Shown: positions 2,505 to 59,875, counted from the stretch's first letter. The stretch is DNA of 64,000 bases from an uncultured virus (IMG/VR IMGVR_UViG_3300015262_000011) (IMGVR_UViG_3300015262_000011); one strand, 5' to 3'. The notes: generated by a model not told the origin, from the letters alone. Program-made: numbers and translations.

Positions 2505-3524
2505 TCACAGGCCGATGTCCTCGCTGGCAGCGTCGGTCCATTTGTCGGCTTCGCGAATGTACCCCCAGAAGGCGGGGCTGTTGTCGGCGTGCCCGGACTG
2601 GGCGCGGATCTTCTCTTCGCGTTTTCCGGCCCGGCGGCTGGTGGTGATGAATCCGGCTCGCATGCTGTGGCCGGTGAGTCGGACGGCGACGCCTGCGCGT
2701 TCGGCGTTGCGGGCGATGATCTCGCGGACGGCTTCCGGCGAGAGGGCACGGTCGCCGACGTGTCCCCAGACGTCGATGGGCAGGAAGGCGGGCCCGGCGG
2801 TGATCCCGGCTGCGGCTCGCCAGGTGAGCCAGGCGCGGACGGGGCAGGTGTCGACGTTCTTGCCGCAGGAGACGACGACGTCGCGGGGAGGGCGGCCCTT
2901 CACGGCGGGCACGTGGACTTCGAGCCCCTGGCTCACGTGGACGATGGCCTCGGCGCGGAGGGCGGCGACTTCGGCGGAGCGTCCGGCGATGGCGAAGGCC
3001 ATGAGCCAGAGGGCGCGGTCGCGGAGTCCGGTGAGTCCGTCGGCGACGGCGGCGTTCATCTGGCGGAGCTGCTCGGGCGTGACGGCTGCCGCCTTGCCTC
3101 GGCCGCGTGCTTGCCGTTCGGGGTCGTTCTTCAGCGGCTTGAGGGCTTGGCGGGCGGCGACGGTGGCGGCCTTGGGGACTTCGATGCCGTGTTCGTTCCG
3201 TGCGGTGACGGTGACGCCGGTGATGCGCCGGTCGATCGAGTTGGGTGCGGCCGCCTTGATGGTGTCGAGCCAGACGACGAACCCGACGAGCGTGCCCTTG
3301 GTGACGGCGGTGGACGGGAGGCGGCTGCCGGTGCGCTCCCCCAGCCAGTCGTGGAACTCTTCCCAGAGTGCCCAGTCGTTGGCGTAGCCGCGCTTGGTGT
3401 TGTGGGGGCGGATGGCGTCGAGGTGCTTCTCGGCTGCTTCTTCCATGGCGGCCAGGACGGCGAGCGTCGCAGCGTCGTAGGCGGCGGGGGTGGCGTCCGG
3501 CTGGCGCGGGACGAGGTCGGTCAT
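2505..3524 (-). CDS. Cre-like tyrosine recombinase / resolvase
   Basis: N-terminal NTKRGYANDWALWEEF; catalytic RDRAL..AGRSAEV, K, LTGHSMRAGF, QSGH, FWGY; no arm-binding domain; GGAGGG RBS. Confidence 0.92.
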   Translation of the reverse strand: MTDLVPRQPDATPAAYDAATLAVLAAMEEAAEKHLDAIRPHNTKRGYANDWALWEEFHDWLGERTGSRLPSTAVTKGTLVGFVVWLDTIKAAAPNSIDRRITGVTVTARNEHGIEVPKAATVAARQALKPLKNDPERQARGRGKAAAVTPEQLRQMNAAVADGLTGLRDRALWLMAFAIAGRSAEVAALRAEAIVHVSQGLEVHVPAVKGRPPRDVVVSCGKNVDTCPVRAWLTWRAAAGITAGPAFLPIDVWGHVGDRALSPEAVREIIARNAERAGVAVRLTGHSMRAGFITTSRRAGKREEKIRAQSGHADNSPAFWGYIREADKWTDAASEDIGL

Positions 3525-38079: not shown

Positions 38080-38349
38080 TCAGTTCGCGGTCCAGTCGTC
38101 GGCGAGTACGTCGCTGACGGTGGGCGCCCATGGGACGAACGAGTCGTCGGCGGCGTGCAGCATGAGGTAGGGCCTGAACACGCAGACGGTGCCTTGCGGG
38201 ATGCCGGTCGCTTCGGCGGTGTTGGCGTTGATCGGGATGCCGTCGGGGTAGCCGCGTTGGAGTACGACGAACTGGCCGTCGCCGCTCCATCCGGTGCGGG
38301 AGATGCGGGCACCGTCCTTGACGTGCCGTAGGGCTTCGCTGAAGTCCAT
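38080..38349 (-). CDS. tad2: DUF2829 / Thoeris anti-defence 2 (Tad2)-like nucleotide sponge
   Basis: MDFSEAL...G.RISR.GW.G...PYL...AD...VPW.PTVSDVLADDW. Confidence 0.85.
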   Translation of the reverse strand: MDFSEALRHVKDGARISRTGWSGDGQFVVLQRGYPDGIPINANTAEATGIPQGTVCVFRPYLMLHAADDSFVPWAPTVSDVLADDWTAN

Positions 38350-43233: not shown

Positions 43234-43354
43234 CGCGCCTCCCCAGGTTTGTCGTCCGCCCCGGCTCCCCGCTAAGGGCCGGGGCGGACTGGGTGGCCCG
43301 AGCGCGTGGCGCTTCAAGGGCCAGACCTGCGCTCGACCACCGCGCGCAGGGGAT

Positions 43355-44804: not shown

Positions 44805-44867
44805 TCCGCCACACAGCGGCGCCCCGGCTGAGGAAAGCAGCCGGGGCGCCGCCCGTACCGTACCCGA

Positions 44868-51071: not shown

Positions 51072-53120
51072 TCAGGCCGCTTCCGCAGCGCTCTCGCCGG
51101 TGATCAGCTTGATCGTTTCGAGCCTGTAGCCGCGGGCGCCCCCCGTGATCTGGACGGTCGCTACGTCGACGTCGATGTCGAGCGCGTCAACGGCCCGCTT
51201 CAGCTCGGCCGCAAGCCGCTTGGCGCCAGCCAGACGGCCACGCTGCTCGTCCTCACCGAGCTTCTCCAGCGCCCACACGTCGGGGTCGTGGGTGCCGAGG
51301 TAGTCGACGATCTCGACGGTGGGGAGGAACGCCGGGTCGTCGGCGGCGGCGAACGCGCCGCGGGCCATCATGACGATCTTAGGCAGGTCGGAGCGGAGCC
51401 GGTCCGCCTCCGTGGCTCCGAAGCGGTCCAGGCCAGCGGCGCGCAGCGACTCGGCGTCCACAGTCGGCCGGCCCGCAGCGGCCCGCTCCCGTGCCCGGCG
51501 GCGGCCCTCCTTGCCTTCCAGAAACAGGAACTTGTGCTTCAGCGGTTCGCGGGAGCCGCCGCCGCGAATGTAGGCCTGGGAGGCGTCACGGAGGTCGTCG
51601 CCCTGTGCGTTGCCCTCGGCCGGGTCGAGGCGGTCCGGCCGCCATCCTTCGTCGCCTGCGCCCCCACCGAAGACCTGCACGACGTCCTGCCGGCGGCACG
51701 GGCCGACGATCTTCAGGGCGATGGTGTCGGCGATGGCCGAACCGATGGTGTCCTTGTTGACCTCCTGCGTGGCCAGCACCAGCTGCACGCGAGACTTCCG
51801 CCCGGTCTGCAGGATCTTGACGGCCAACTCCTTGGCCCGGTCGGACAGTTGCGGGTACTCGTCGATGAACAGGACGATCGCCGGGCGCTCCGGTGAGGGC
51901 TCCCAGTTCTCCTTCATGCCGAGCTTCGCGAACAGTGACGGCCGCGCCTTCGCAATCTTCAGGGCCTGTTCGAGGATCTTCTCGATCTGCCCCATGTTGT
52001 CGTCGCCGATCGCCCGCACCCCGACCGCCTCGGCCAGCGGCGCCAGGCCGTTGCCGCCCGGGTCCAGGTCGCCGACCAGCACGTCCGAGCAGGCGGTGAG
52101 CGTGTCGGCGAGCGCCCGGAGGATCACGGACTTCCCGCCGCCCGACCCGGCGACCACGATGACGTGCACGCCGAGCAGCGACGGGTCGAACTTCTGGCCA
52201 TCCATGCGGTAGGCGATGACCTGCCGGTCCCGCATCCGGTGACTGTTGGGCTTCCGCTCGGGCGCGGCAGGCATCTTGTCGAACGGGTCGGACTGGACGA
52301 GCCGCAGCACAACCTGCCCGCGGGAGGCCCGCACCGGCTGGCAGTGCAGCCCGTTCTCCGGCAGGTCGAGCGGGGTTTCCAGGTCGGGCGCCTTGGTGAC
52401 GATGTCGGCGGGCTTGCCTTTGGCGAGACGGACGGTGATCTCCCAGCCCCAGTCGTGGCGTCGGTTCGCCTCGACCTCCTTCACGGCGATGCCTTCGGAG
52501 GCGAGGGCGCGGCGGACGCATTCGGCGGCCTCGGTGCGGTTGCGGGCGTCGGCGATCGGGAACGGGTCGCCGTCTTCGGCGAGGATCTGCACTTTGCCCG
52601 GGTCGACGCCACGGGGCCGGCCGCGCCAGGCGCCGACGGTGACGGCGGCGAGTGCGTACAGGGCGGTGATCCACATCCCGCATTCGGCGAGCCCGTAGAG
52701 GCCGGCGCCGAGAGCGGGAGCCCCGTAGATGCCCCGCTTGATCCAGTACTTGCGCTTGTGGTCCGTGTACTGCTGCTCGCGGCGGGCGGCGACGGCGTGC
52801 CCCTGCGTCTCCTTCTGCAAGTCGCCTTCGACGGTGGCGACGTAGGTGTGGGCGGTGCGGATCATCTGCGGGTACGGTCCGTGAAACTTCGCACGCTCGA
52901 TGCGGGCGATGTGCCACCAGCCACGTGCCGACCAGCCGATCCAGATGACCGACGGGTGGTGGCCGACCGTGCGGGCGGTTCGGCGCACGATCGCGGCCTT
53001 GGAGTGGATCCAGGCGGGCAGATGCCGGGCGGGTACGGCGGGGGTCTTGTCGACGACGGTCTCGGCCGGCTTCACGAGCGCCATCGCCGGCGTTTTCTGG
53101 TTTGTGGTCGGGGTGGCCAT
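51072..53120 (-). CDS. traB: TraB-like FtsK/SpoIIIE conjugative DNA translocase
   Basis: N-terminal TM pair; Walker A GSGGGKS; Walker B VLFIDE; GRKSRVQLVLATQ; GWRPDRL; C-terminal winged-helix-like ...RGY. Confidence 0.88.
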   Translation of the reverse strand: MATPTTNQKTPAMALVKPAETVVDKTPAVPARHLPAWIHSKAAIVRRTARTVGHHPSVIWIGWSARGWWHIARIERAKFHGPYPQMIRTAHTYVATVEGDLQKETQGHAVAARREQQYTDHKRKYWIKRGIYGAPALGAGLYGLAECGMWITALYALAAVTVGAWRGRPRGVDPGKVQILAEDGDPFPIADARNRTEAAECVRRALASEGIAVKEVEANRRHDWGWEITVRLAKGKPADIVTKAPDLETPLDLPENGLHCQPVRASRGQVVLRLVQSDPFDKMPAAPERKPNSHRMRDRQVIAYRMDGQKFDPSLLGVHVIVVAGSGGGKSVILRALADTLTACSDVLVGDLDPGGNGLAPLAEAVGVRAIGDDNMGQIEKILEQALKIAKARPSLFAKLGMKENWEPSPERPAIVLFIDEYPQLSDRAKELAVKILQTGRKSRVQLVLATQEVNKDTIGSAIADTIALKIVGPCRRQDVVQVFGGGAGDEGWRPDRLDPAEGNAQGDDLRDASQAYIRGGGSREPLKHKFLFLEGKEGRRRARERAAAGRPTVDAESLRAAGLDRFGATEADRLRSDLPKIVMMARGAFAAADDPAFLPTVEIVDYLGTHDPDVWALEKLGEDEQRGRLAGAKRLAAELKRAVDALDIDVDVATVQITGGARGYRLETIKLITGESAAEAA

Positions 53121-53129
53121 GGCGGGGGG

Positions 53130-54395
53130 TCAGTCCTTCTTCTCTCGGGCGTTCTTAGCGGTGATGGAGGCCTGGCGGCGGGCGGCTGCGACGTACTGCT
53201 GGGTGTCACCGGGCTGCCGTGTCGGAGGCTTGCGGGCGGCGCCTCGCTGTGCGCGGGGCATTTGGTTTGCACGCTGCGCGTTTGTGGTCTTGCTGAGGGT
53301 GTTCACGGGGGCGCCGGTGAGGGCTGCTTCGACGCGCTTCTCGGCGGCGCGCCGGGAGCTGATGGACTCGATGGATTCGCCCGGGTCGCAGCCCTTGATG
53401 TTGCGGTAGGCGCGCGGCCACACGGCCGGGTCTTCGGGGTCCTTGCCGAGCGCTGCACCGATCCTCACGGCCTCTTCCCAGACGTCCTTGAAGACGGTCT
53501 GGCGGATCTCTCGCAGCTCCAGCCGCGCCTTCTCGGCAGCCTCGTCCGCGGCCTCCTTCTCGGCGCGCTTCCGCTCCTCTTCGGCGGCCCGCTGCTTGGC
53601 CTCCTCCTTCGCCACCCTCGCCGCGGCCTTGCGCTCCCGGCGGGTCTGGACGCCGTCGCGCTTGCGGATCCGCCCGTGCTCGTGAAGGTCCCACACACCA
53701 GGGCCGGCGATCGACGCGAACGCGGTCGCGACAGCCGTGCCGGGGTCGAACGAGTGGAGGCCGTGGTACAGGTTGACGCCAGCGGCGATGAAGGCGAGCA
53801 GCCACACGATGGTGCGGTAATGCCAGACCGGGCGCCGGTTGGCGACGGCGGCGCGGGCGCCGCGGTGGACGACCCAGGCCGCACCTTCGAGCATGATCGG
53901 GGCGGCGGCCATCCAGGGGGCGTGCGGGTTCCAGAAGAAGCTCATCTGGACGGGCAGGGAGACGATGCCGCAGACGATCGCGAACTTGATCGCGTAGGAG
54001 CGCCACTTGTCGTCGGCGGTCTTGATCTCTTCGGCGGCCTGGTCTTCGGCGGCTTTCTCTTCTTGCTCCTGGCGTCGGGCCTTCTCGCGGGCGCGCTCGA
54101 TGTCCTCGCGCTTCTTCTCCGCCTCGGCGATCTTCGTGTTCTGTTCGGCCTGCTCACGCTTGAAGCGGAGTGCCGCGCGTTCGTTGGCGAGGGCCTGCTT
54201 GTCGTTCTCCAGCTCCAGCGCCTTCGCCTGCTCGACGCCTACCGCACGTTCGGCATCAGCCTTGCCCTGTGCTTCGATGCGGACGGCTTCGGCTTCGGCG
54301 TCGGCGCGTCTCCGGATCGCCTCCGCCTCGGCCAGGGCGCGCGGGTCGTACCCGGGCGTGTGGCCGTTGAGCTTCTCGATGGGCGTGGCGGTCAC
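53130..54395 (-). CDS. SpdB-like (DUF2637-like) membrane / coiled-coil transfer protein
   Basis: Coiled coil, four TM helices (SLPVQM...AAGVNLYHG), second coiled coil; directly upstream of traB. Confidence 0.75.
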   Translation of the reverse strand: MTATPIEKLNGHTPGYDPRALAEAEAIRRRADAEAEAVRIEAQGKADAERAVGVEQAKALELENDKQALANERAALRFKREQAEQNTKIAEAEKKREDIERAREKARRQEQEEKAAEDQAAEEIKTADDKWRSYAIKFAIVCGIVSLPVQMSFFWNPHAPWMAAAPIMLEGAAWVVHRGARAAVANRRPVWHYRTIVWLLAFIAAGVNLYHGLHSFDPGTAVATAFASIAGPGVWDLHEHGRIRKRDGVQTRRERKAAARVAKEEAKQRAAEEERKRAEKEAADEAAEKARLELREIRQTVFKDVWEEAVRIGAALGKDPEDPAVWPRAYRNIKGCDPGESIESISSRRAAEKRVEAALTGAPVNTLSKTTNAQRANQMPRAQRGAARKPPTRQPGDTQQYVAAARRQASITAKNAREKKD

Positions 54396-54430
54396 GGCAG
54401 ATCAATCCCTTCGGGGTGTGATGGGGGTGG

Positions 54431-54625
54431 TCAGCGGTTGCGGCGGCGGGTGGTGCGCCAGCCGAAGCCGCCGGGGAGGTTGGCGGAGACGGTGTCGAGT
54501 CCGGTGGAGTTGCGCGTGTAACGCGGGGTGTGCTTGCCGCCGACCGTGATCGACCACGACCGCCGGTTGATGTTGAGGCGGACACCGGGCAGGATCCGGA
54601 AGCTCTTGCGGAACGTGAGCGGCAT
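54431..54625 (-). CDS. DUF4236-like small basic protein
   Basis: FRKSFRILPGVRLNI...S..VG...LPG. Confidence 0.8.
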   Translation of the reverse strand: MPLTFRKSFRILPGVRLNINRRSWSITVGGKHTPRYTRNSTGLDTVSANLPGGFGWRTTRRRNR

Positions 54626-54834
54626 CAACGCCTCCGGGCTGGGGTGTGTGCGGGGCGGCGCAGGTAGTGCACGGCGACCGCCGCCAGCAGCACGGCGAAC
54701 AGGACCGGCGGCTGGGCGAGGACGGTGAACGCGCCCGTCGCGACCAGCACGATCGGGGCGGCGGCCGGGGGCCACAGGCCGACCAGTAGCAGGTACAGCC
54801 CGCTGAGGACGGCGAGAACAGGGTGACGGCGCAT
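54625..54834 (-). CDS. Small hydrophobic membrane protein (Spd-like)
   Basis: GAAGGAAGG RBS; almost entirely hydrophobic. Confidence 0.7.
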   Translation of the reverse strand: MRRHPVLAVLSGLYLLLVGLWPPAAAPIVLVATGAFTVLAQPPVLFAVLLAAVAVHYLRRPAHTPARRR

Positions 54835-54927
54835 GACGGCCTTCCTTCAGGTAGATCGAGGTGGGTGGTGGTGCTGGCCAGGTCTCCTCACCGCCGGGAA
54901 TGCCGGGTCCGGCGGATCGGAGAACGG

Positions 54928-55137
54928 TCAGGCAGGGAATCGGCCGGTGTCTCGCAGGTGTTCGACTGCGGCCCGGCTCTCCTCGATGTCGGCCCGGGTT
55001 TCAGCGATCCGTGCCTGGGTGCGGGCTTCGGCGGCGTCGAGGCGGGCGTTCAGGTCGGCGAGGGTCTGGTTATAGGCGCGGCCCGGCTGTCCGGCGTCGC
55101 GTTCGGCGCCGGTCTGAATGTGGGTGATGTCGGCCAC
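54928..55137 (-). CDS. Small coiled-coil protein
   Basis: Operonic ORF. Confidence 0.6.
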   Translation of the reverse strand: MADITHIQTGAERDAGQPGRAYNQTLADLNARLDAAEARTQARIAETRADIEESRAAVEHLRDTGRFPA

Positions 55138-55139
55138 GG

Positions 55140-55280
55140 CTACTTGCCGTCCTTGCCGTAGGCCTTGTCGAGGGCGGCCTTCGCGTCCTTGACCTTGCCG
55201 GAGACGATGCCGTCGTACACCTTCTGACCCTTGGCGACGTTCTTCGAGCTGGTCAGGTCGGTGCTCTTCTTGCCGAACAT
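55140..55280 (-). CDS. Small Lys-rich protein
   Basis: GAGAGGA RBS; MFGKKS... Confidence 0.6.
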   Translation of the reverse strand: MFGKKSTDLTSSKNVAKGQKVYDGIVSGKVKDAKAALDKAYGKDGK

Positions 55281-55350
55281 GCGGTTCCTCTCGGAGTTGG
55301 GTGGGGTTACTGGACGATCTGGTTGGGCGGGACCGGCTTGCGGAGAGCTA

Positions 55351-55542
55351 TCAGCGGCTGCCGCGTTCACCGACGATGCGGTCCGCGACCGCCCTCACCT
55401 CCGGGGACAGCCCGTCGGTGGCGGCCTCGATGCGCCCGCGGCCCTCATCGGCACTCATCGAGCCCTGCTGCACGTACTCGCGGATACCAAGCACCTTCAG
55501 GGCAGCGGTTTCGCCCTCGGTCTCAACGGCACGGCTGATCAT
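55351..55542 (-). CDS. Small hypothetical protein
   Basis: AAGGAG RBS. Confidence 0.6.
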   Translation of the reverse strand: MISRAVETEGETAALKVLGIREYVQQGSMSADEGRGRIEAATDGLSPEVRAVADRIVGERGSR

Positions 55543-55572
55543 GTATGGCTCCTTCGATCGGATTCGGGTGGG

Positions 55573-55630
55573 TGGTGCGCGCCCCGGGCGGGAGTCGACC
55601 CCGCGCCCTCGCGGCGTGGTTGCCGGGGCT
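55573..55630 (-). ncRNA. tRNA-like intergenic element A
   Basis: AGCCCCGG..CC-GCGA-GG..GCGGGG-TCGAC-TCCCGC-CCGGGGC-GCGCACCA. Confidence 0.6.
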
Positions 55631-55643
55631 GGATGGTCGGGGA

Positions 55644-55826
55644 CTAGTCGACGGTGCGGTCGACGACGAAGCCGTCCGGCCGGGAGTGGCCGCGGACTTC
55701 CTCGACGGTGTAGCCGGGGTTGTCCTCGTACAGGTGGGCGTGCTGGCCGGTGACGAAGGTCGTGTCGTAGGGCGTGGTGACGCGGTGAGCGATCTCCTCG
55801 CCGGTGTTCTCGTCGCGGCGGAACAT
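55644..55826 (-). CDS. Small hypothetical protein
   Basis: GAGGAG RBS; MFRRDENT... Confidence 0.62.
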   Translation of the reverse strand: MFRRDENTGEEIAHRVTTPYDTTFVTGQHAHLYEDNPGYTVEEVRGHSRPDGFVVDRTVD

Positions 55827-55857
55827 GCGGTGCTCCTCTCGGGCCGGGTGGATGGTG

Positions 55858-55914
55858 TGGTGCGCGCCCCGGGCCGCAGTCGATGCGGCGCCCTCACGGC
55901 TGGATGCCGGGGCT
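55858..55914 (-). ncRNA. tRNA-like intergenic element B
   Basis: AGCCCCGG..CC-GTGA-GG..GCCGCA-TCGAC-TGCGGC-CCGGGGC-GCGCACCA. Confidence 0.6.
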
Positions 55915-55920
55915 GGAGGG

Positions 55921-56211
55921 TCAGACCATGTCGCGGTACTCGTCGACCAGATCGGCCGTCTTCGCCAGGCGTCGGACGGCCCGGCCGAGGAGGGCCTTGC
56001 GCTTGGCGCCGGTCTCATCGAGGGCATCGGCCAGGTAGGTGGCGGCAGCCCGAAAGGCGTCCGCGCCGTCGATGCCAGCGATGTCGCCCAGGTTGTAGGC
56101 GGCCTTGCCGAGCTGGTCGGCGAACTCCTGCGGGCTGGTGGCGGGTTCGGCACCGGCGGCGTAGGCGATGTCGTCGACGAACGGCGCGAGCACGGCGGGG
56201 GCGATGGTCAT
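55921..56211 (-). CDS. Hypothetical helical protein
   Basis: GGAG RBS; clean ORF. Confidence 0.68.
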   Translation of the reverse strand: MTIAPAVLAPFVDDIAYAAGAEPATSPQEFADQLGKAAYNLGDIAGIDGADAFRAAATYLADALDETGAKRKALLGRAVRRLAKTADLVDEYRDMV

Positions 56212-56216
56212 GACGG

Positions 56217-56384
56217 TCAGCGCTCCGTGGTCTGCTTGAAGGTCCAGCCGCCGGTCGTGGTGCCGAGGTTGCTCTCGGATTCCTCGCGGGCCTTGGCGAG
56301 GAACGGACTGTCGAACGTGCCGCGGTCCTGGCCGTTCTCGTCGGCGGCCTGGGTGGGCTCGTAGTCCTTCGAGTAGCTGGTCAT
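56217..56384 (-). CDS. Small hypothetical protein
   Basis: GGAAGGA RBS; MTSYSKDY... Confidence 0.6.
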   Translation of the reverse strand: MTSYSKDYEPTQAADENGQDRGTFDSPFLAKAREESESNLGTTTGGWTFKQTTER

Positions 56385-56416
56385 GTTGTCGGTCCTTCCA
56401 GTCGAATTCGGATAGG

Positions 56417-56474
56417 TGGTGCGCGCCCCGGCTTGCGGGTGAGGCGGCGGCCCGGGATCGGCCTGGCCGGGGCT
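56417..56474 (-). ncRNA. Element C (same outer stem and ACCA end as A and B, divergent core)
   Basis: AGCCCCGG...CCGGGGC-GCGCACCA, 58 nt. Confidence 0.45.
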
Positions 56475-56518
56475 GGGGCCGCGCCCCGCGGGGGATTCGG
56501 GGCGCGGCGGTCGGTGGG

Positions 56519-56932
56519 TCAGGCGGCGAGGGCCATGCGCGGCCCGTAGCGGCGGGCGAATGCGGCGGCCGTGGCCAGCAGGTCCAGGACCTCCGGCAGC
56601 GTGCGGGCCGCCTTGTCCTGCCACACGTCCAGATCGACGAACGGGGCGCCGAGGTGCGCGGCGAGGATCTGCTCCAGCAGGTCGACGCCGACCATCTGCG
56701 TGTCCTCGTCGTGCAGAGCGTCGAGGCGCACCTGGCGCAGTGCGTCGACGAGCTGCCGGTAGGAGCCGGGCCCGTACACCTGCGGATCCCAGTTGTCGCG
56801 GCGCATCAACTGGGCTGCCGCGGCCAGGTGGGCGGCCACCGCATCGCCGGTGACGCGCTCACCGGACAGGCCGAACCAAGTGGCGGAATCGATACGGGAC
56901 GCTGCGACACGGGCCGCGAACTCGAAAGACAT
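56519..56932 (-). CDS. DUF6197-like protein
   Basis: HL.AAA.LM...W; W.D...RT..EVL.LL..AA. Confidence 0.65.
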   Translation of the reverse strand: MSFEFAARVAASRIDSATWFGLSGERVTGDAVAAHLAAAAQLMRRDNWDPQVYGPGSYRQLVDALRQVRLDALHDEDTQMVGVDLLEQILAAHLGAPFVDLDVWQDKAARTLPEVLDLLATAAAFARRYGPRMALAA

Positions 56933-56987
56933 GGCGGGGCTGCTTTCTGAACGAAGGGATGTGGGGGTCAGGCGGTGGTGCGGGCGG

Positions 56988-57221
56988 TTACCAGTCCTCG
57001 CCGGGCATGCGGCCCTCACGAAGGGCGGCAGCCTCCTCGCGATACTCCTGGGCGTGGTTGCGGGCGAACCGGGCGGCGGTGCGGGCCTGCGCCTGAATGG
57101 CGGGGCTGTTGTTCGGGTCCACGGCGGCGGCATCACCGGAAGCGGCGGCACGGTCCGAACGGGCAGCAGACTTCTCGCGGTCTTCGGCGAGCTCGTTCAT
57201 CTGGCGGCGGGAAAGACGCAT
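56988..57221 (-). CDS. Small helical protein
   Basis: GAGGAG RBS. Confidence 0.62.
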   Translation of the reverse strand: MRLSRRQMNELAEDREKSAARSDRAAASGDAAAVDPNNSPAIQAQARTAARFARNHAQEYREEAAALREGRMPGEDW

Positions 57222-57326
57222 AGCGGGGCTCCTCAACTGGTCATGCCGGAATGGGTGGGGTGGTGCGGGGTGGAAAGCCGCGGCGGCGGGACGGGGGTGG
57301 ACACCGCCGCCGCGGCAGATCGGGGG

Positions 57327-57482
57327 CTAGCGGGGCCGGCTCTCGGACCGCTTGTTGGCTTCGGCGACCTTGCGGCTGAGTTCCTTGTGGCCGTCGTCGT
57401 CCAGGCAGAGGACGAAGCCGGGATGCCCGCCGCGGGGCCGCTTCGGAAGCTCGTCCTTCGTCTTCTCGTGCTCGGCGCTCAC
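57327..57482 (-). CDS. Small hypothetical protein
   Basis: GTGA overlap; SAEHEKTKDELPKRPRG... Confidence 0.5.
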   Translation of the reverse strand: MSAEHEKTKDELPKRPRGGHPGFVLCLDDDGHKELSRKVAEANKRSESRPR

Positions 57483-57667
57483 CGCTGCTCACCGGCCTCG
57501 GCCTGGAGAACCACGTGGAACGCGTCGTCCTCCAGGACCATCACGACCTCGGCCGCCAGGCCCTCCAGGCGGCGGGCGTGAGCGAACTCCTCGGCCGGGA
57601 ACTGGCCGCGCGGGCCGCCGGCGGGGAAACGCTCAAGGACCGTGCGGGCGGGGGTTGCGGTGGCCAT
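57479..57667 (-). CDS. Small hypothetical protein
   Basis: VLERFPAGGPRG.FPAEEFA..RR..G..AEVVM. Confidence 0.68.
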   Translation of the reverse strand: MATATPARTVLERFPAGGPRGQFPAEEFAHARRLEGLAAEVVMVLEDDAFHVVLQAEAGEQR

Positions 57668-57954
57668 CAGAACCACCGCCGCTTCGGCTTCGGCGCAACG
57701 TCGGCCTCGGCCTGGTTCGCCGTGGCCCGCAGGCCGCGTGCACGACCCCGCTGACGGTCCGCTTCACGCCGGGCCCGCTCCGCCTTCGCCGGATCCGTGT
57801 AGTCGCGGCCCTGACGGCTGTACACGTCGGCGGTCATCTGCTGCTGCTCCGCCTGCTGCTCGGCGGAGTACGCCATCCGACGCAGAGCCGGAGCCTGCCG
57901 GGCCGCGTACCGCTGCTCCTCCGTCTGCATGTCACTGAACGTGCGGCGGGCCAT
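57667..57954 (-). CDS. Helical hypothetical protein
   Basis: TGATG coupling; ends PKPKRRWF. Confidence 0.65.
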   Translation of the reverse strand: MARRTFSDMQTEEQRYAARQAPALRRMAYSAEQQAEQQQMTADVYSRQGRDYTDPAKAERARREADRQRGRARGLRATANQAEADVAPKPKRRWF

Positions 57955-58160
57955 CAGACGCCACCGCCGATCAAGTCCAGGCGGCCGGCCTGCTCCAACT
58001 GGCAGCGACACATCGCCATCTCGTCCTGGTCACGCAGACACTGCTCGATGTTCCCGGCGGCCGAAGCAGCCGAGCAGTGCGCGGCGACGGCCTCGTACCG
58101 TGCGGCCATCTCCGCCGGAGTCGACGGAAGCGGGGCGGTGAGGCGGGTGGGGGTGCTCAT
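57954..58160 (-). CDS. Small hypothetical protein
   Basis: DEMAMCRCQL..AGRLDLI; ATGA overlap. Confidence 0.68.
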   Translation of the reverse strand: MSTPTRLTAPLPSTPAEMAARYEAVAAHCSAASAAGNIEQCLRDQDEMAMCRCQLEQAGRLDLIGGGV

Positions 58161-58402
58161 GACGCGACCTCCGTCGGGTTGATCAGAGAGTCATTGAGGT
58201 ACGCCTCGACAGCGGAGGCGGGGATGCGGATTGCTCCGCCACGTCGGATCTCGCCCTCGACTCGGGGCTGTCCGTACTGGATCGACGGCAGGTATCCGCT
58301 GGCAGCCCAGCGGTAGACGGTCGGCTTGGAGACCCGCAGCAACTTTGCGGTCTCCGCCACAGTGAGCAGCTTTTGGGCCGCAGGCAGCATCTGGCTCTCC
58401 AA
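58157..58402 (-). CDS. Excisionase-like HTH_17 (Cro-position) protein
   Basis: LLTVAETAKLLRVSKPTVYRWAASGYLP...IRIP..AV. Confidence 0.85.
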   Translation of the reverse strand: MESQMLPAAQKLLTVAETAKLLRVSKPTVYRWAASGYLPSIQYGQPRVEGEIRRGGAIRIPASAVEAYLNDSLINPTEVAS

Positions 58403-58423
58403 TCCAGGAGTGGGGGTTGGACT

Positions 58424-58556
58424 GACTTCTCTACTGTGCGACGTCTCTTGATAGGTGTCAACCGTCTCGCCCGCTCAGACCGCTCTCGTAAGCCCCGCAG
58501 CCCCGCGTGAACTGGCCTTATGGTTGAGAAATTGCTGGATGCCTCAAGAGAAGTCG
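58424..58556. promoter_or_regulatory. Divergent switch region with repeated operator
   Basis: Minus-strand TTGACA (58456-58461)-17 nt-CACAGT; CGACGTCTCTTGA (58439-58451) vs TCAAGAGAAGTCG (58544-58556) inverted with one mismatch; partial copy GACTTCTCT at 58424. Confidence 0.65.
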
Positions 58557-58575
58557 CCTACTGGAGGAGCCCGAA

Positions 58576-59112
58576 GTGGCGGAAGCACGCTGGACTGGAT
58601 CATCAGCGCCCTATCTCGAAAGTGGACAGGGCGACGTCTGGGGTAAAGAGGCCGCAGCTCAGGGACGATCCGGTACCCAGCAGATCCTGAGCGCAGGCGA
58701 GGTTCCGGCGCCGCAAGAAGTCGCAACTCGGCTGCACATAGAACCCGGCGCGCCAGTCGTCGCCAGGCAGAGGCTGATCCAGATGGACGGTCAGCCGATT
58801 GAGTTGGCCAACTCCTACTGGCCCCCCGGAATCGCATCGGGGACGGCGCTTGCCGAGACCGGAAAGGTCCGAGGTGGCGCCGTCTCACTGCTGGCAAGCC
58901 TCGGCTACGAGCCCGGCGCCGTTGCGGAGGAAGTCGGCACGCGCCCACCCACCAAGGAAGAGGCGCAGGTACTGCAACTCGCCGACAACCGCGAGTGGGT
59001 ACTCACCCTCACCCGCGCAATCACCACCCCTGACGGGCGCCCCTACGAGGTGTCGGTCATGGTCAGCCCCGGCCGCATTGGGCGGCTCCACTACTCAATG
59101 AAGGTCGACTGA
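58576..59112 (+). CDS. Stand-alone UTRA-domain protein (no HTH)
   Basis: VVARQRL...DGQPIELANSYWP...EEV.TRPPT.EEA..L...VL...R.....GRPYEV. Confidence 0.85.
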   Translation: MAEARWTGSSAPYLESGQGDVWGKEAAAQGRSGTQQILSAGEVPAPQEVATRLHIEPGAPVVARQRLIQMDGQPIELANSYWPPGIASGTALAETGKVRGGAVSLLASLGYEPGAVAEEVGTRPPTKEEAQVLQLADNREWVLTLTRAITTPDGRPYEVSVMVSPGRIGRLHYSMKVD

Positions 59113-59113
59113 C

Positions 59114-59875
59114 ATGCCCGATGAGCACGAGGAAGAGAGCGTCTGGCCCGTCCAGGATCAGATCGCCGCATACCTCCGCGACAGAATCCTGAACGGCGAC
59201 ATCGTTCCTGACGGGAGGCTGCCGTCGAGCCGCGAACTGCACACCCAGTTCGGTGCCGCCGCGCAGACCATCAAGAACGCCATGACGATCCTGGAGAAAG
59301 AGGGGCTCGTCTACTCACGGCGGGGCGCTGGCGTGTACGCGAGGCAGCACCGACAGCGCACGATGGAACCGGCGAGCTACAAGAATCCGCCAGGTGACGG
59401 CGGCACGTACCAGTGGATCGCTGCGGCCAACCGAAAGGGCCTCGCAGGGAGGAGTGACCTGCTCGCCGTTGAGGAGGTCGTCCCCCCGGCGGCCGTGCGA
59501 GACGCCTTCGGGCTCGGCGAAGACGAGAAGGTGCTGCTGCGTCGACAGGTTCTCCACCTGGACGATCAACCCTGCGAGCTGGTCGAGGTCTACATCCCTC
59601 TGGACCTGGCCCGAGGTACGCCCATCGCCGAGAACCGCAAGATCAGGGGCGGCGTGGGGCGCATCCTCATGGAGGCTGGCCTGCCGCCGCTGCGATGCGT
59701 GGACAAGGTGGCGGCGCGGTGGCCGACTCCAGAACAGGCCAAGGCGTTGCAGATGCCGACCAAGCTGCCCGTGCTGCGCCAGTTCCGGGTGACCTACAGC
59801 GTGGACGACAGGCCCATCCAGGCCGAGGTGATGGCAAAGGCGGGTCACCTGTACGAGTTGCAGTACGAGTTCTGA
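59114..59875 (+). CDS. GntR/HutC-family repressor (KorSA/TraR-like)
   Basis: QIAAYLRDRI..G...GRLPSSREL..FG....TI..A...L..EGLV.SRRGAGVY plus C-terminal UTRA. Confidence 0.92.
   Translation: MPDEHEEESVWPVQDQIAAYLRDRILNGDIVPDGRLPSSRELHTQFGAAAQTIKNAMTILEKEGLVYSRRGAGVYARQHRQRTMEPASYKNPPGDGGTYQWIAAANRKGLAGRSDLLAVEEVVPPAAVRDAFGLGEDEKVLLRRQVLHLDDQPCELVEVYIPLDLARGTPIAENRKIRGGVGRILMEAGLPPLRCVDKVAARWPTPEQAKALQMPTKLPVLRQFRVTYSVDDRPIQAEVMAKAGHLYELQYEF

Follow-up and report, generated by a model that had tools for sequence, protein, structure and literature searches.

The C4 RNA of phage P1 and the CI RNA of phage P4 are phage-encoded regulatory RNAs that are matured by host ribonuclease (RNase) P and act as antisense regulators with defined targets. 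In plant mitochondria, t-elements, which are folds resembling transfer RNA (tRNA), and bare stem-loops resembling an acceptor stem mark messenger RNA (mRNA) ends that have been attributed to RNase P or RNase Z (PMC1920247). In Haloferax, engineered tRNA-like elements release CRISPR RNAs, and natural ones adjoin haloarchaeal 5S ribosomal RNA; there, as in the tRNA punctuation of animal mitochondria, functional RNAs are separated by a tRNA or tRNA-like fold that guides RNase P and tRNase Z to their cuts in a long precursor (PMC4946936). Here we analyse three intergenic units, A, B and C, in a stretch of 64,000 nucleotides (nt) from an uncultured virus (IMGVR_UViG_3300015262_000011), the whole of which is hereafter the window. 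Units A and B are copies of a genuine structured-RNA family of about 48 nt (46-50 nt) in Streptomyces mobile elements, which we call family 1 and whose fold comprises a 7-base-pair (bp) outer stem (GCCCCGG/CCGGGGC), a hairpin of 3 bp capped by the loop GYGAN and a T-stem of 5 bp whose loop reads AUCRANU. Our preferred reading, to which we give a probability of roughly 0.45, is that these elements may serve as tRNA-like processing signals in mRNA, cut by the host tRNA-maturation enzymes RNase P and 3' tRNA endonuclease.

Like the plant t-elements, family 1 has a non-canonical tRNA-like fold with a conserved T-arm, which lies on the transcribed strand, in presumed mRNA, beside coding regions. 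The mitochondrial acceptor-like stem-loops at other sites, for which RNase P and RNase Z have been proposed as readers, resemble the C-type and plain hairpins described below. Unlike t-elements, the present elements are bacterial, confined to mobile elements and only 46-50 nt long, and their main form has neither D nor anticodon arm; they keep one invariant acceptor sequence, have A at position 54 and are known from sequence alone, whereas t-element ends were mapped experimentally. The mitochondrial and haloarchaeal units are real tRNAs or full cloverleaves, in contrast to the miniature mimics found here between protein genes of bacterial mobile elements. They also differ from P1 C4 and P4 CI in being spacers repeated between genes, a placement that argues for a role in cis.

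With Rfam 15, no match at gathering score was obtained in the window or in 40 element-bearing loci, and relaxed E-values gave no match on the elements. Full-text literature searches, whose coverage leaves out subscription journals, returned no description of such elements. As a kind of element, tRNA-like processing signals are already known; what appears to be new is this family, together with its sister modules, its small size and its occurrence in the mobile elements of bacteria.

The elements and their family

All three units lie on the minus strand (A, 55630-55573; B, 55914-55858; C, 56474-56417). The 5' GCCCCGG, the 3' CCGGGGC and the tail GCGCACCA are common to them, as the initial annotation had stated of stem and 3' sequence, and the 15-mer CCGGGGCGCGCACCA has exactly three exact occurrences (55587-55573, 55872-55858 and 56431-56417). 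Each unit was also said to stand just after a stop codon and ahead of the next ribosome-binding site, which agrees with the distances: A begins 14 nt after the stop codon of the gene at 55644-55826, B 7 nt after that of the gene at 55921-56211 and C 45 nt after that of the gene at 56519-57019, and the next ATGs (55542, 55826 and 56384) follow after 38, 39 and 40 nt.

In A, the tRNA-like core (55629-55581, followed by the tail at 55580-55573) is made of the GCCCCGG/CCGGGGC stem, the linker CAACCAC, the hairpin GCC-GCGAG-GGC and the T-arm GCGGG-GUCGACU-CCCGC. In B (core 55913-55866, tail 55865-55858), the same outer stem encloses the linker CAUCCA, the hairpin GCC-GUGAG-GGC and the T-arm GCCGC-AUCGACU-GCGGC. 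Both thus have a linker of 6-7 nt and a 5-bp stem with a 7-nt loop that directly abuts the 3' strand of the outer stem, and their T-arm-like stems differ by compensatory changes, as first proposed. The GNRA hairpin attributed to the two is indeed common to both, but its loop is better read as a 5-nt GYGAN on a 3-bp stem (GCC-GYGAG-GGC). Unit C (core 56473-56425) belongs to a sister form. Its 35-nt interior is without T-arm, and what it has in common with A and B is limited to the outer stem, the tail and the downstream leader, here of 40 nt.

In a search of the window with a covariance model trained on A, B and six plasmid copies, B reached 81.7 bits (E about 1e-13) and A 72.7 bits (E about 1e-11), and the next best match 22 bits. 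Unit C, at 11 bits (E 4.3), falls within background. Of the three like elements originally described, A and B are accordingly one structure, and C is not. Two GCCCCGG...CCGGGGC hairpins with 13-nt loops at 43248-43295 and 44816-44857, matched weakly by the model (9-17 bits) on both strands, were rejected as family members and are ordinary terminator-like palindromes.

Pooling Streptomyces chromosomes, plasmids and viral contigs gave at least 199 distinct structured contexts. The element was found by blastn in 11 Streptomyces plasmids and, in the small ones, lies within a GntR-controlled operon immediately upstream of traA/traB. A pattern scan of species-representative genomes matched at least 124 stretches; among the matches listed, nearly all are from Streptomyces, with Actinacidiphila, Streptantibioticus and one Catenulispora metagenome-assembled genome besides, and four matches without the inner pairings (loci L030, L033, L081 and L098) were excluded as false. 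The same pattern matched 56 stretches in IMG/VR viral contigs. Among 151 Streptomyces genomes, the covariance model gave matches with E up to 0.01 in 64 and strong true elements (E < 1e-3) in 24, and in a sample of the class Actinomycetes it matched 2 of 151 genomes, both Streptomyces. When 1.8 kb of the window was compared by BLAST with 401 Streptomyces genomes, 23 matched, and nearly all matches cover A or B alone, so that the elements are far better conserved than the surrounding genes. Against INPHARED phage records, blastn left a 1.26-kb region unmatched and gave for the 49-nt element a single 29-nt match at chance level. Plasmid NZ_CP108706.1 (L004, L005 and L009-L015) carries three copies upstream of traA/traB, and in its record of 32,084 bases all three recur at an offset of 16,046 bases, as though a plasmid of about 16 kb had been recorded as a head-to-tail dimer.

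Selection on RNA structure, proposed from A and B only, is borne out by the wider comparison. A MAFFT alignment was made of 32 distinct copies obtained by blastn, BLAST or the model, none of them by the stem-anchored pattern. Standard pairs fill 99.6% of its cells, both sides have changed in six of the 15 pairs, the covariation score was reached by 0 of 500 shuffles, and pairing dropped to 25-64% in controls with slid partners; the same picture of pairing and covariation came from 95 model hits. As the aligned sequences are related and the model was trained on the structure, these counts are to be taken as support and not as a probability. Variation is unevenly spread: the outer stem, near-invariant in sequence, shows one compensatory change, four wobbles and one mismatch in the 32 copies, and the T-stem changes freely.

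Two independent features suggest that the elements act as sense-strand RNA of the gene strand. Over the 199 copies, G·U or U·G pairs number 79 versus three A·C or C·A pairs. The elements are also co-oriented with genes: 107 of the 199 copies have, at a distance of 30-50 nt downstream, a same-strand start with a Shine-Dalgarno sequence before it (antisense control, 7), 188 have one within 150 nt (control, 36), and a stop codon stands 5-30 nt upstream in 94 (control, 6). After the stem come RCKC and a stretch rich in C and A, not the U-tract of an intrinsic terminator, and a scan of 54300-59300 returned no promoter-like or terminator-like sites at A-C.

These strand asymmetries bear directly on a possible DNA-level site, be it a GntR operator, a TraB recognition or clt site, a tRNA-derived recombination or attachment site, or a mobile inverted repeat. 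The 7-bp inverted repeat is invariant in sequence, a TraB-like gene lies in the operon, and integrative elements target the 3' ends of tRNA genes, of which one locus discussed below (L174) resembles a remnant. However, an excess of G·U over A·C pairs and co-orientation with genes ill suit a double-stranded site; the window shows no enrichment of GCCCCGG (46 occurrences against 43 expected), and no target-site duplication recurs consistently in the flanks that were read. In pSVH1, the operator of TraR is a 14-bp AT-containing repeat unrelated to the elements (PMC4447253). Together, the asymmetries, the lack of motif enrichment and the unrelated operator make a double-stranded DNA function highly improbable. 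The sps palindrome of pIJ101 was rejected as a relative, being a 12-bp in-gene protein site (PMC4170104).

The spacing between genes also invites a translation-level device, in which the stem, placed at the entrance of the terminating ribosome, would tune termination, ribosome release or re-initiation at the next gene. Distances are sharply distributed, with stop-to-stem peaks at 6-8 and 10-14 nt and never less than 5 nt, and a family-wide stem-to-start peak at 37-40 nt. Yet in 105 of the 199 copies no stop was detected within 30 nt upstream, and such a device gives no reason for the T-loop or for the purine-then-C ending considered next; we regard it as very unlikely.

Likeness to transfer RNA

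In all 199 contexts the 7-bp and 5-bp stems adjoin directly, in the manner of the acceptor and T stems of tRNA. The loop is closed by G53 and C61, and the positions that the pattern left free are occupied by A (95%), T (96%), C (100%), G/A, A (82%), A/C and T (97%); the consensus, G53-A-U-C-R-A-N-U-C61, is the T-loop consensus save at position 54. Immediately 3' of the stem stands A (75%) or G (19%), and next to it C (96%). In one Streptomyces genome (G001, L193-L222), C74 is encoded by 35 of 35 distinct tRNA genes and the full CCA by only 8, so that the elements, with a purine then C after the stem, end as host tRNA genes do. The ACCA which the initial annotation took for a tRNA-type 3' end has to be given up: in the window it lies 4 nt past the stem (G-C-G-C-ACCA), out of register and specific to this window, and over the 199 copies CCA directly follows the discriminator in 13 and ACCA occurs anywhere within 12 nt in 55. 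What is conserved is the purine followed by C.

Rarer variants come closer to a cloverleaf. In those at L095, L070, L039 and L171-L173, the outer stem and the GYGAN hairpin are separated by an additional hairpin of 5-8 bp, set off in L172 by connectors of 2 nt and 1 nt like positions 8-9 and 26 of the cloverleaf, and the variants at L021 and L089 have the canonical TTCGACT loop. About 0.55 kb upstream of the three-armed variant in L171, positions 825-955 resemble gntR-DTE RNA (RF02989; 60 bits, cut-off 63.6). The T-loop consensus, the host-like gene ends and these mini-cloverleaf variants strengthen the original idea of a tRNA mimic. Compared with bacterial tRNA (RF00005), the elements share the abutting 7-bp and 5-bp stems, the T-loop-like loop, the discriminator purine with C74 and the acceptor stem of a tRNA(CAA), but lack both the D-arm and the anticodon arm and have A at position 54.

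The weaker matches of the covariance model are true tRNAs, with which the elements have the T-arm, the 3' strand and an ACTC trailer in common. Nineteen weak matches (36-40 bits) were inspected: 17 are tRNA genes, one is a tRNA-Arg 3' remnant and one received no ARAGORN call. The accessory tRNA(CAA) genes (L177:1506-1581 and L180-L191) are 74-76 nt long, without long variable arm, and have AT-rich flanks; their acceptor stem GCCCCGG/CCGGGGC, A73 and C74 are identical to those of the elements, and two copies carry the compensatory pair GCCCTGG/CCAGGGC. Model hits of this type, 87-89 nt long, were obtained in 14 of the 151 Streptomyces genomes, and the 13 inspected were confirmed by ARAGORN; genome G135, which is flagged as unpublished, is not among these 13, enters the 151-genome tally through one weak row only and carries no claim here. 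Separately, a tRNA-Arg(CCG) 3' half without its 5' half lies at L174:1501-1557 and is probably the attachment-site remnant of an integrated element.

That a genuine accessory tRNA(CAA) has the same stem is in keeping with another possibility, namely that a released 50-nt mini-tRNA is itself the product and, after trimming and CCA addition, acts in trans, either sequestering, as decoy or sponge, the host factors or defence toxins that act on tRNA acceptor ends, or serving as substrate of an aminoacyl-tRNA synthetase reading the acceptor stem. The near-invariance of this stem beside a freely varying T-stem would then be accounted for. The operons that house the elements are the first to be expressed when the mobile element enters or is induced, and a Tad2-like anti-defence gene is present in the window, which both fit this possibility too. 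A discriminator that varies between A (75%) and G (19%) is, however, a poor fit to synthetase identity, the tight spacing to both flanking genes suggests a cis role, and no candidate target is known. Moreover, the elements have no anticodon arm, which excludes anticodon nucleases as targets and renders unlikely the decoy function first suggested for them. Overall, we find action in trans decidedly unlikely.

Interchangeable forms and the proposed cleavage

The gaps occupied by family 1 can hold other folds. C-type interiors, which were found solely by a stem-anchored regular expression over loci already collected, occur within the same outer stem and with a similar leader in L275, L226, L228, L058, L276 and L267, with a further variant in L043 and L089, and mostly share operons with family-1 copies; homologues of the interior of C itself were found neither in plasmids nor by BLAST in the 401 Streptomyces genomes. 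A second family, family 2, is marked by the stem GCCCCGC/GCGGGGC and by a loop of canonical sequence, TTCGAAT/C; it includes a hairpin resembling an anticodon arm and lacks the D-arm. Its copies (L043, reverse strand 2794-2856; L045:2588-2653; L089, reverse strand 2938-3001) lie 550-900 nt farther along the same operons as family 1, and ARAGORN calls those of L045 and L089 tRNA-Glu or tRNA-Gly of 66-68 nt; the L043 copy was recognized by its stem and T-loop pattern only. In plasmid NZ_CP109332.1 (L016:5413-5449), the site homologous to B is occupied by a perfect plain hairpin of 12 bp (GGGGTCCGGTCG/CGACCGGACCCC), preceded by ...DMV-stop as at B and followed by A-C and a C/A-rich leader.

A type II hammerhead (RF02276) also lies in an intercistronic gap of an element operon, on the strand of the elements (L043:1472-1534, minus strand; 50.1 bits, cut-off 37), and a candidate below the cut-off (32.1 bits) is placed likewise at L089:1276-1339 (minus strand). 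The successive gaps of the L043 operon hold a family-1 element, the hammerhead, a family-2 element and a C-type element, and L089 is similar. Hammerheads share the intercistronic position with the elements but cleave themselves, whereas the elements, without ribozyme core, would need host enzymes. Their presence in an equivalent gap of the same operon suggests the same job, the cutting of polycistronic RNA; as a regular expression over all collected loci gave L043 and L089 only, this co-occurrence is an illustration and not a rule. The flanking genes, for their part, belong to 61 unrelated families among 133 downstream and 47 among 63 upstream, including DUF6284, DUF6251, TraB-like FtsK, Toastrack, PrimPol/D5_N and RapZ-C-like genes, which makes the element a portable spacer rather than the leader of one gene.

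RNase III processing hairpins occur between the early genes of phage T7, and the elements could likewise be structural spacers left uncut by tRNA enzymes, either RNase III-type hairpins or insulators and stabilizers whose folds block 3' exonucleases for the upstream gene or cap the 5' end of the downstream one, their tRNA likeness reflecting ancestry only. Such spacers would fit the exchange of unrelated folds (family 1, family 2, C-type and the plain 12-bp hairpin) at one position, all of them with a coaxial helix of about 8-12 bp. They would nevertheless leave unexplained both the conservation of T-loop bases and the purine-then-C match to host tRNA gene ends; the helices are short for RNase III, and the hammerhead in an equivalent gap points to cleavage. 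We hold this alternative to be unlikely.

Under the preferred reading of the elements as tRNA-like processing signals, miniature tRNA mimics would sit in the mRNA of the GntR-controlled early/transfer operons of Streptomyces prophages, plasmids and integrative conjugative elements. With the 7-bp acceptor-like stem stacked on the 5-bp T-stem and the GYGAN hairpin in place of the D and anticodon arms, the fold would be mistaken for a pre-tRNA by host tRNA-maturation enzymes, RNase P cutting on the 5' side of G1, and an endonuclease for the 3' end, such as RNase Z or its equivalent, after the discriminator. Such cuts would part the cistrons, give the 37-40-nt C/A-rich leader of the next gene a defined start and let adjacent genes differ in mRNA stability, a small tRNA-like RNA being freed as by-product.

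Several observations weigh against this proposal. ARAGORN found no tRNA in the window, and the Rfam tRNA model (RF00005) gave no match at E up to 10 on 55400-56600, nor on the elements at E up to 1 in ten variant-bearing loci; as neither recognizes family 1, the element is a mimic and not a tRNA. Loop position 54, U in real tRNAs, is occupied by A in 95% of copies. Folded singly, A, B and C do not exceed shuffled sequences in stability (z = +0.40, -0.76 and -0.28), so that support for the structure comes from the comparison between copies and not from thermodynamics. The T-arm is not indispensable to the spacer role, since C-type and plain hairpins fill the same position. Cleavage by RNase P or RNase Z is, for every copy, something that we infer throughout; a look-up of sequencing runs for 55300-56560 listed four DNA metagenome runs and none of RNA. 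Finally, RNase P needs no fixed sequence, and the near-invariant outer stem therefore hints at a sequence-specific reader or a second function. This invariance is the main unexplained fact, and it leaves room for a sequence-specific reader, for a released RNA acting in trans or for concerted evolution of the module ends.

A broader proposal would join these threads: Streptomyces mobile elements would punctuate their operons with interchangeable modules (mini-tRNA mimics of at least two families, acceptor-like hairpins and hammerheads), the mimics hijacking RNase P and RNase Z in a bacterial version of mitochondrial tRNA punctuation. On this view the near-invariant acceptor stem, found also in an accessory tRNA(CAA), would signify that a host factor specific for this sequence also reads the released, CCA-tailed mini-tRNAs, which might for instance act as decoys against defences aimed at tRNA acceptor ends. 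Taken as a whole, this is possible but doubtful.

Operon setting and meaning of the elements

The window is GC-rich (0.64-0.72) and contains siphovirus-like prophage genes (integrase, tape measure, tail tube and portal). The genes around 55-58 kb are on the minus strand and belong to a long operon, at the head of which stands a divergent GntR/UTRA regulator gene (59114-59875, plus strand; PF00392, PF07702). Farther down the operon of A-C lies a TraB-like FtsK/SpoIIIE gene (51072-53120, minus strand; phrog_12531, E 3e-105), and the initial label of early/transfer operon is fair because the GntR-headed operon holds this gene. As the TraB-like gene shares the window with siphovirus structural genes, the stretch may represent a phage with a conjugation-type translocase or two adjoining mobile elements. 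The Tad2-like (Thoeris anti-defence 2) gene (38080-38349, minus strand; PF11195, E 2.6e-22) lies within the same long minus-strand array.

The elements are flanked by minus-strand genes. In the direction of transcription, a DUF6197 gene (56519-57019; PF19698, E 1.7e-10) precedes C, a 55-amino-acid gene (56217-56384) follows it, a 96-amino-acid gene with homologues in plasmid NZ_CP109332.1 and genome G146 (55921-56211) stands upstream of B, a 60-amino-acid gene (55644-55826) lies between B and A, and a 63-amino-acid gene without family match (55351-55542) is downstream of A. The leader after A (55543-55580, minus strand) is 38 nt long, C/A-rich and G-poor, carries a Shine-Dalgarno sequence and ends at the ATG of the 63-amino-acid gene; its equivalents follow B (55827-55865) and C (56385-56424). 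Between the DUF6197 stop codon and C, a plain hairpin read from the sequence (56481-56505, minus strand) has an 8-bp stem (GCGCCCCG/CGGGGCGC) and a 9-nt loop; it is without U-tract and was not called as a terminator.

The elements constitute an apparently new and easily searched RNA family, present in about one-sixth of the sampled Streptomyces genomes. If they are indeed cut by tRNA-maturation enzymes, bacteria would have in them their first widespread case of protein-coding operons punctuated by tRNA-like folds, and they would explain how dozens of small genes under one repressed promoter can have separate mRNA fates. In that case they could further be put to use, in Streptomyces multigene constructs, as compact spacers of about 48 nt that the host itself processes. 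Whether these modules have further readers is a testable question, raised by the invariance of the acceptor stem and by the existence of sister forms.

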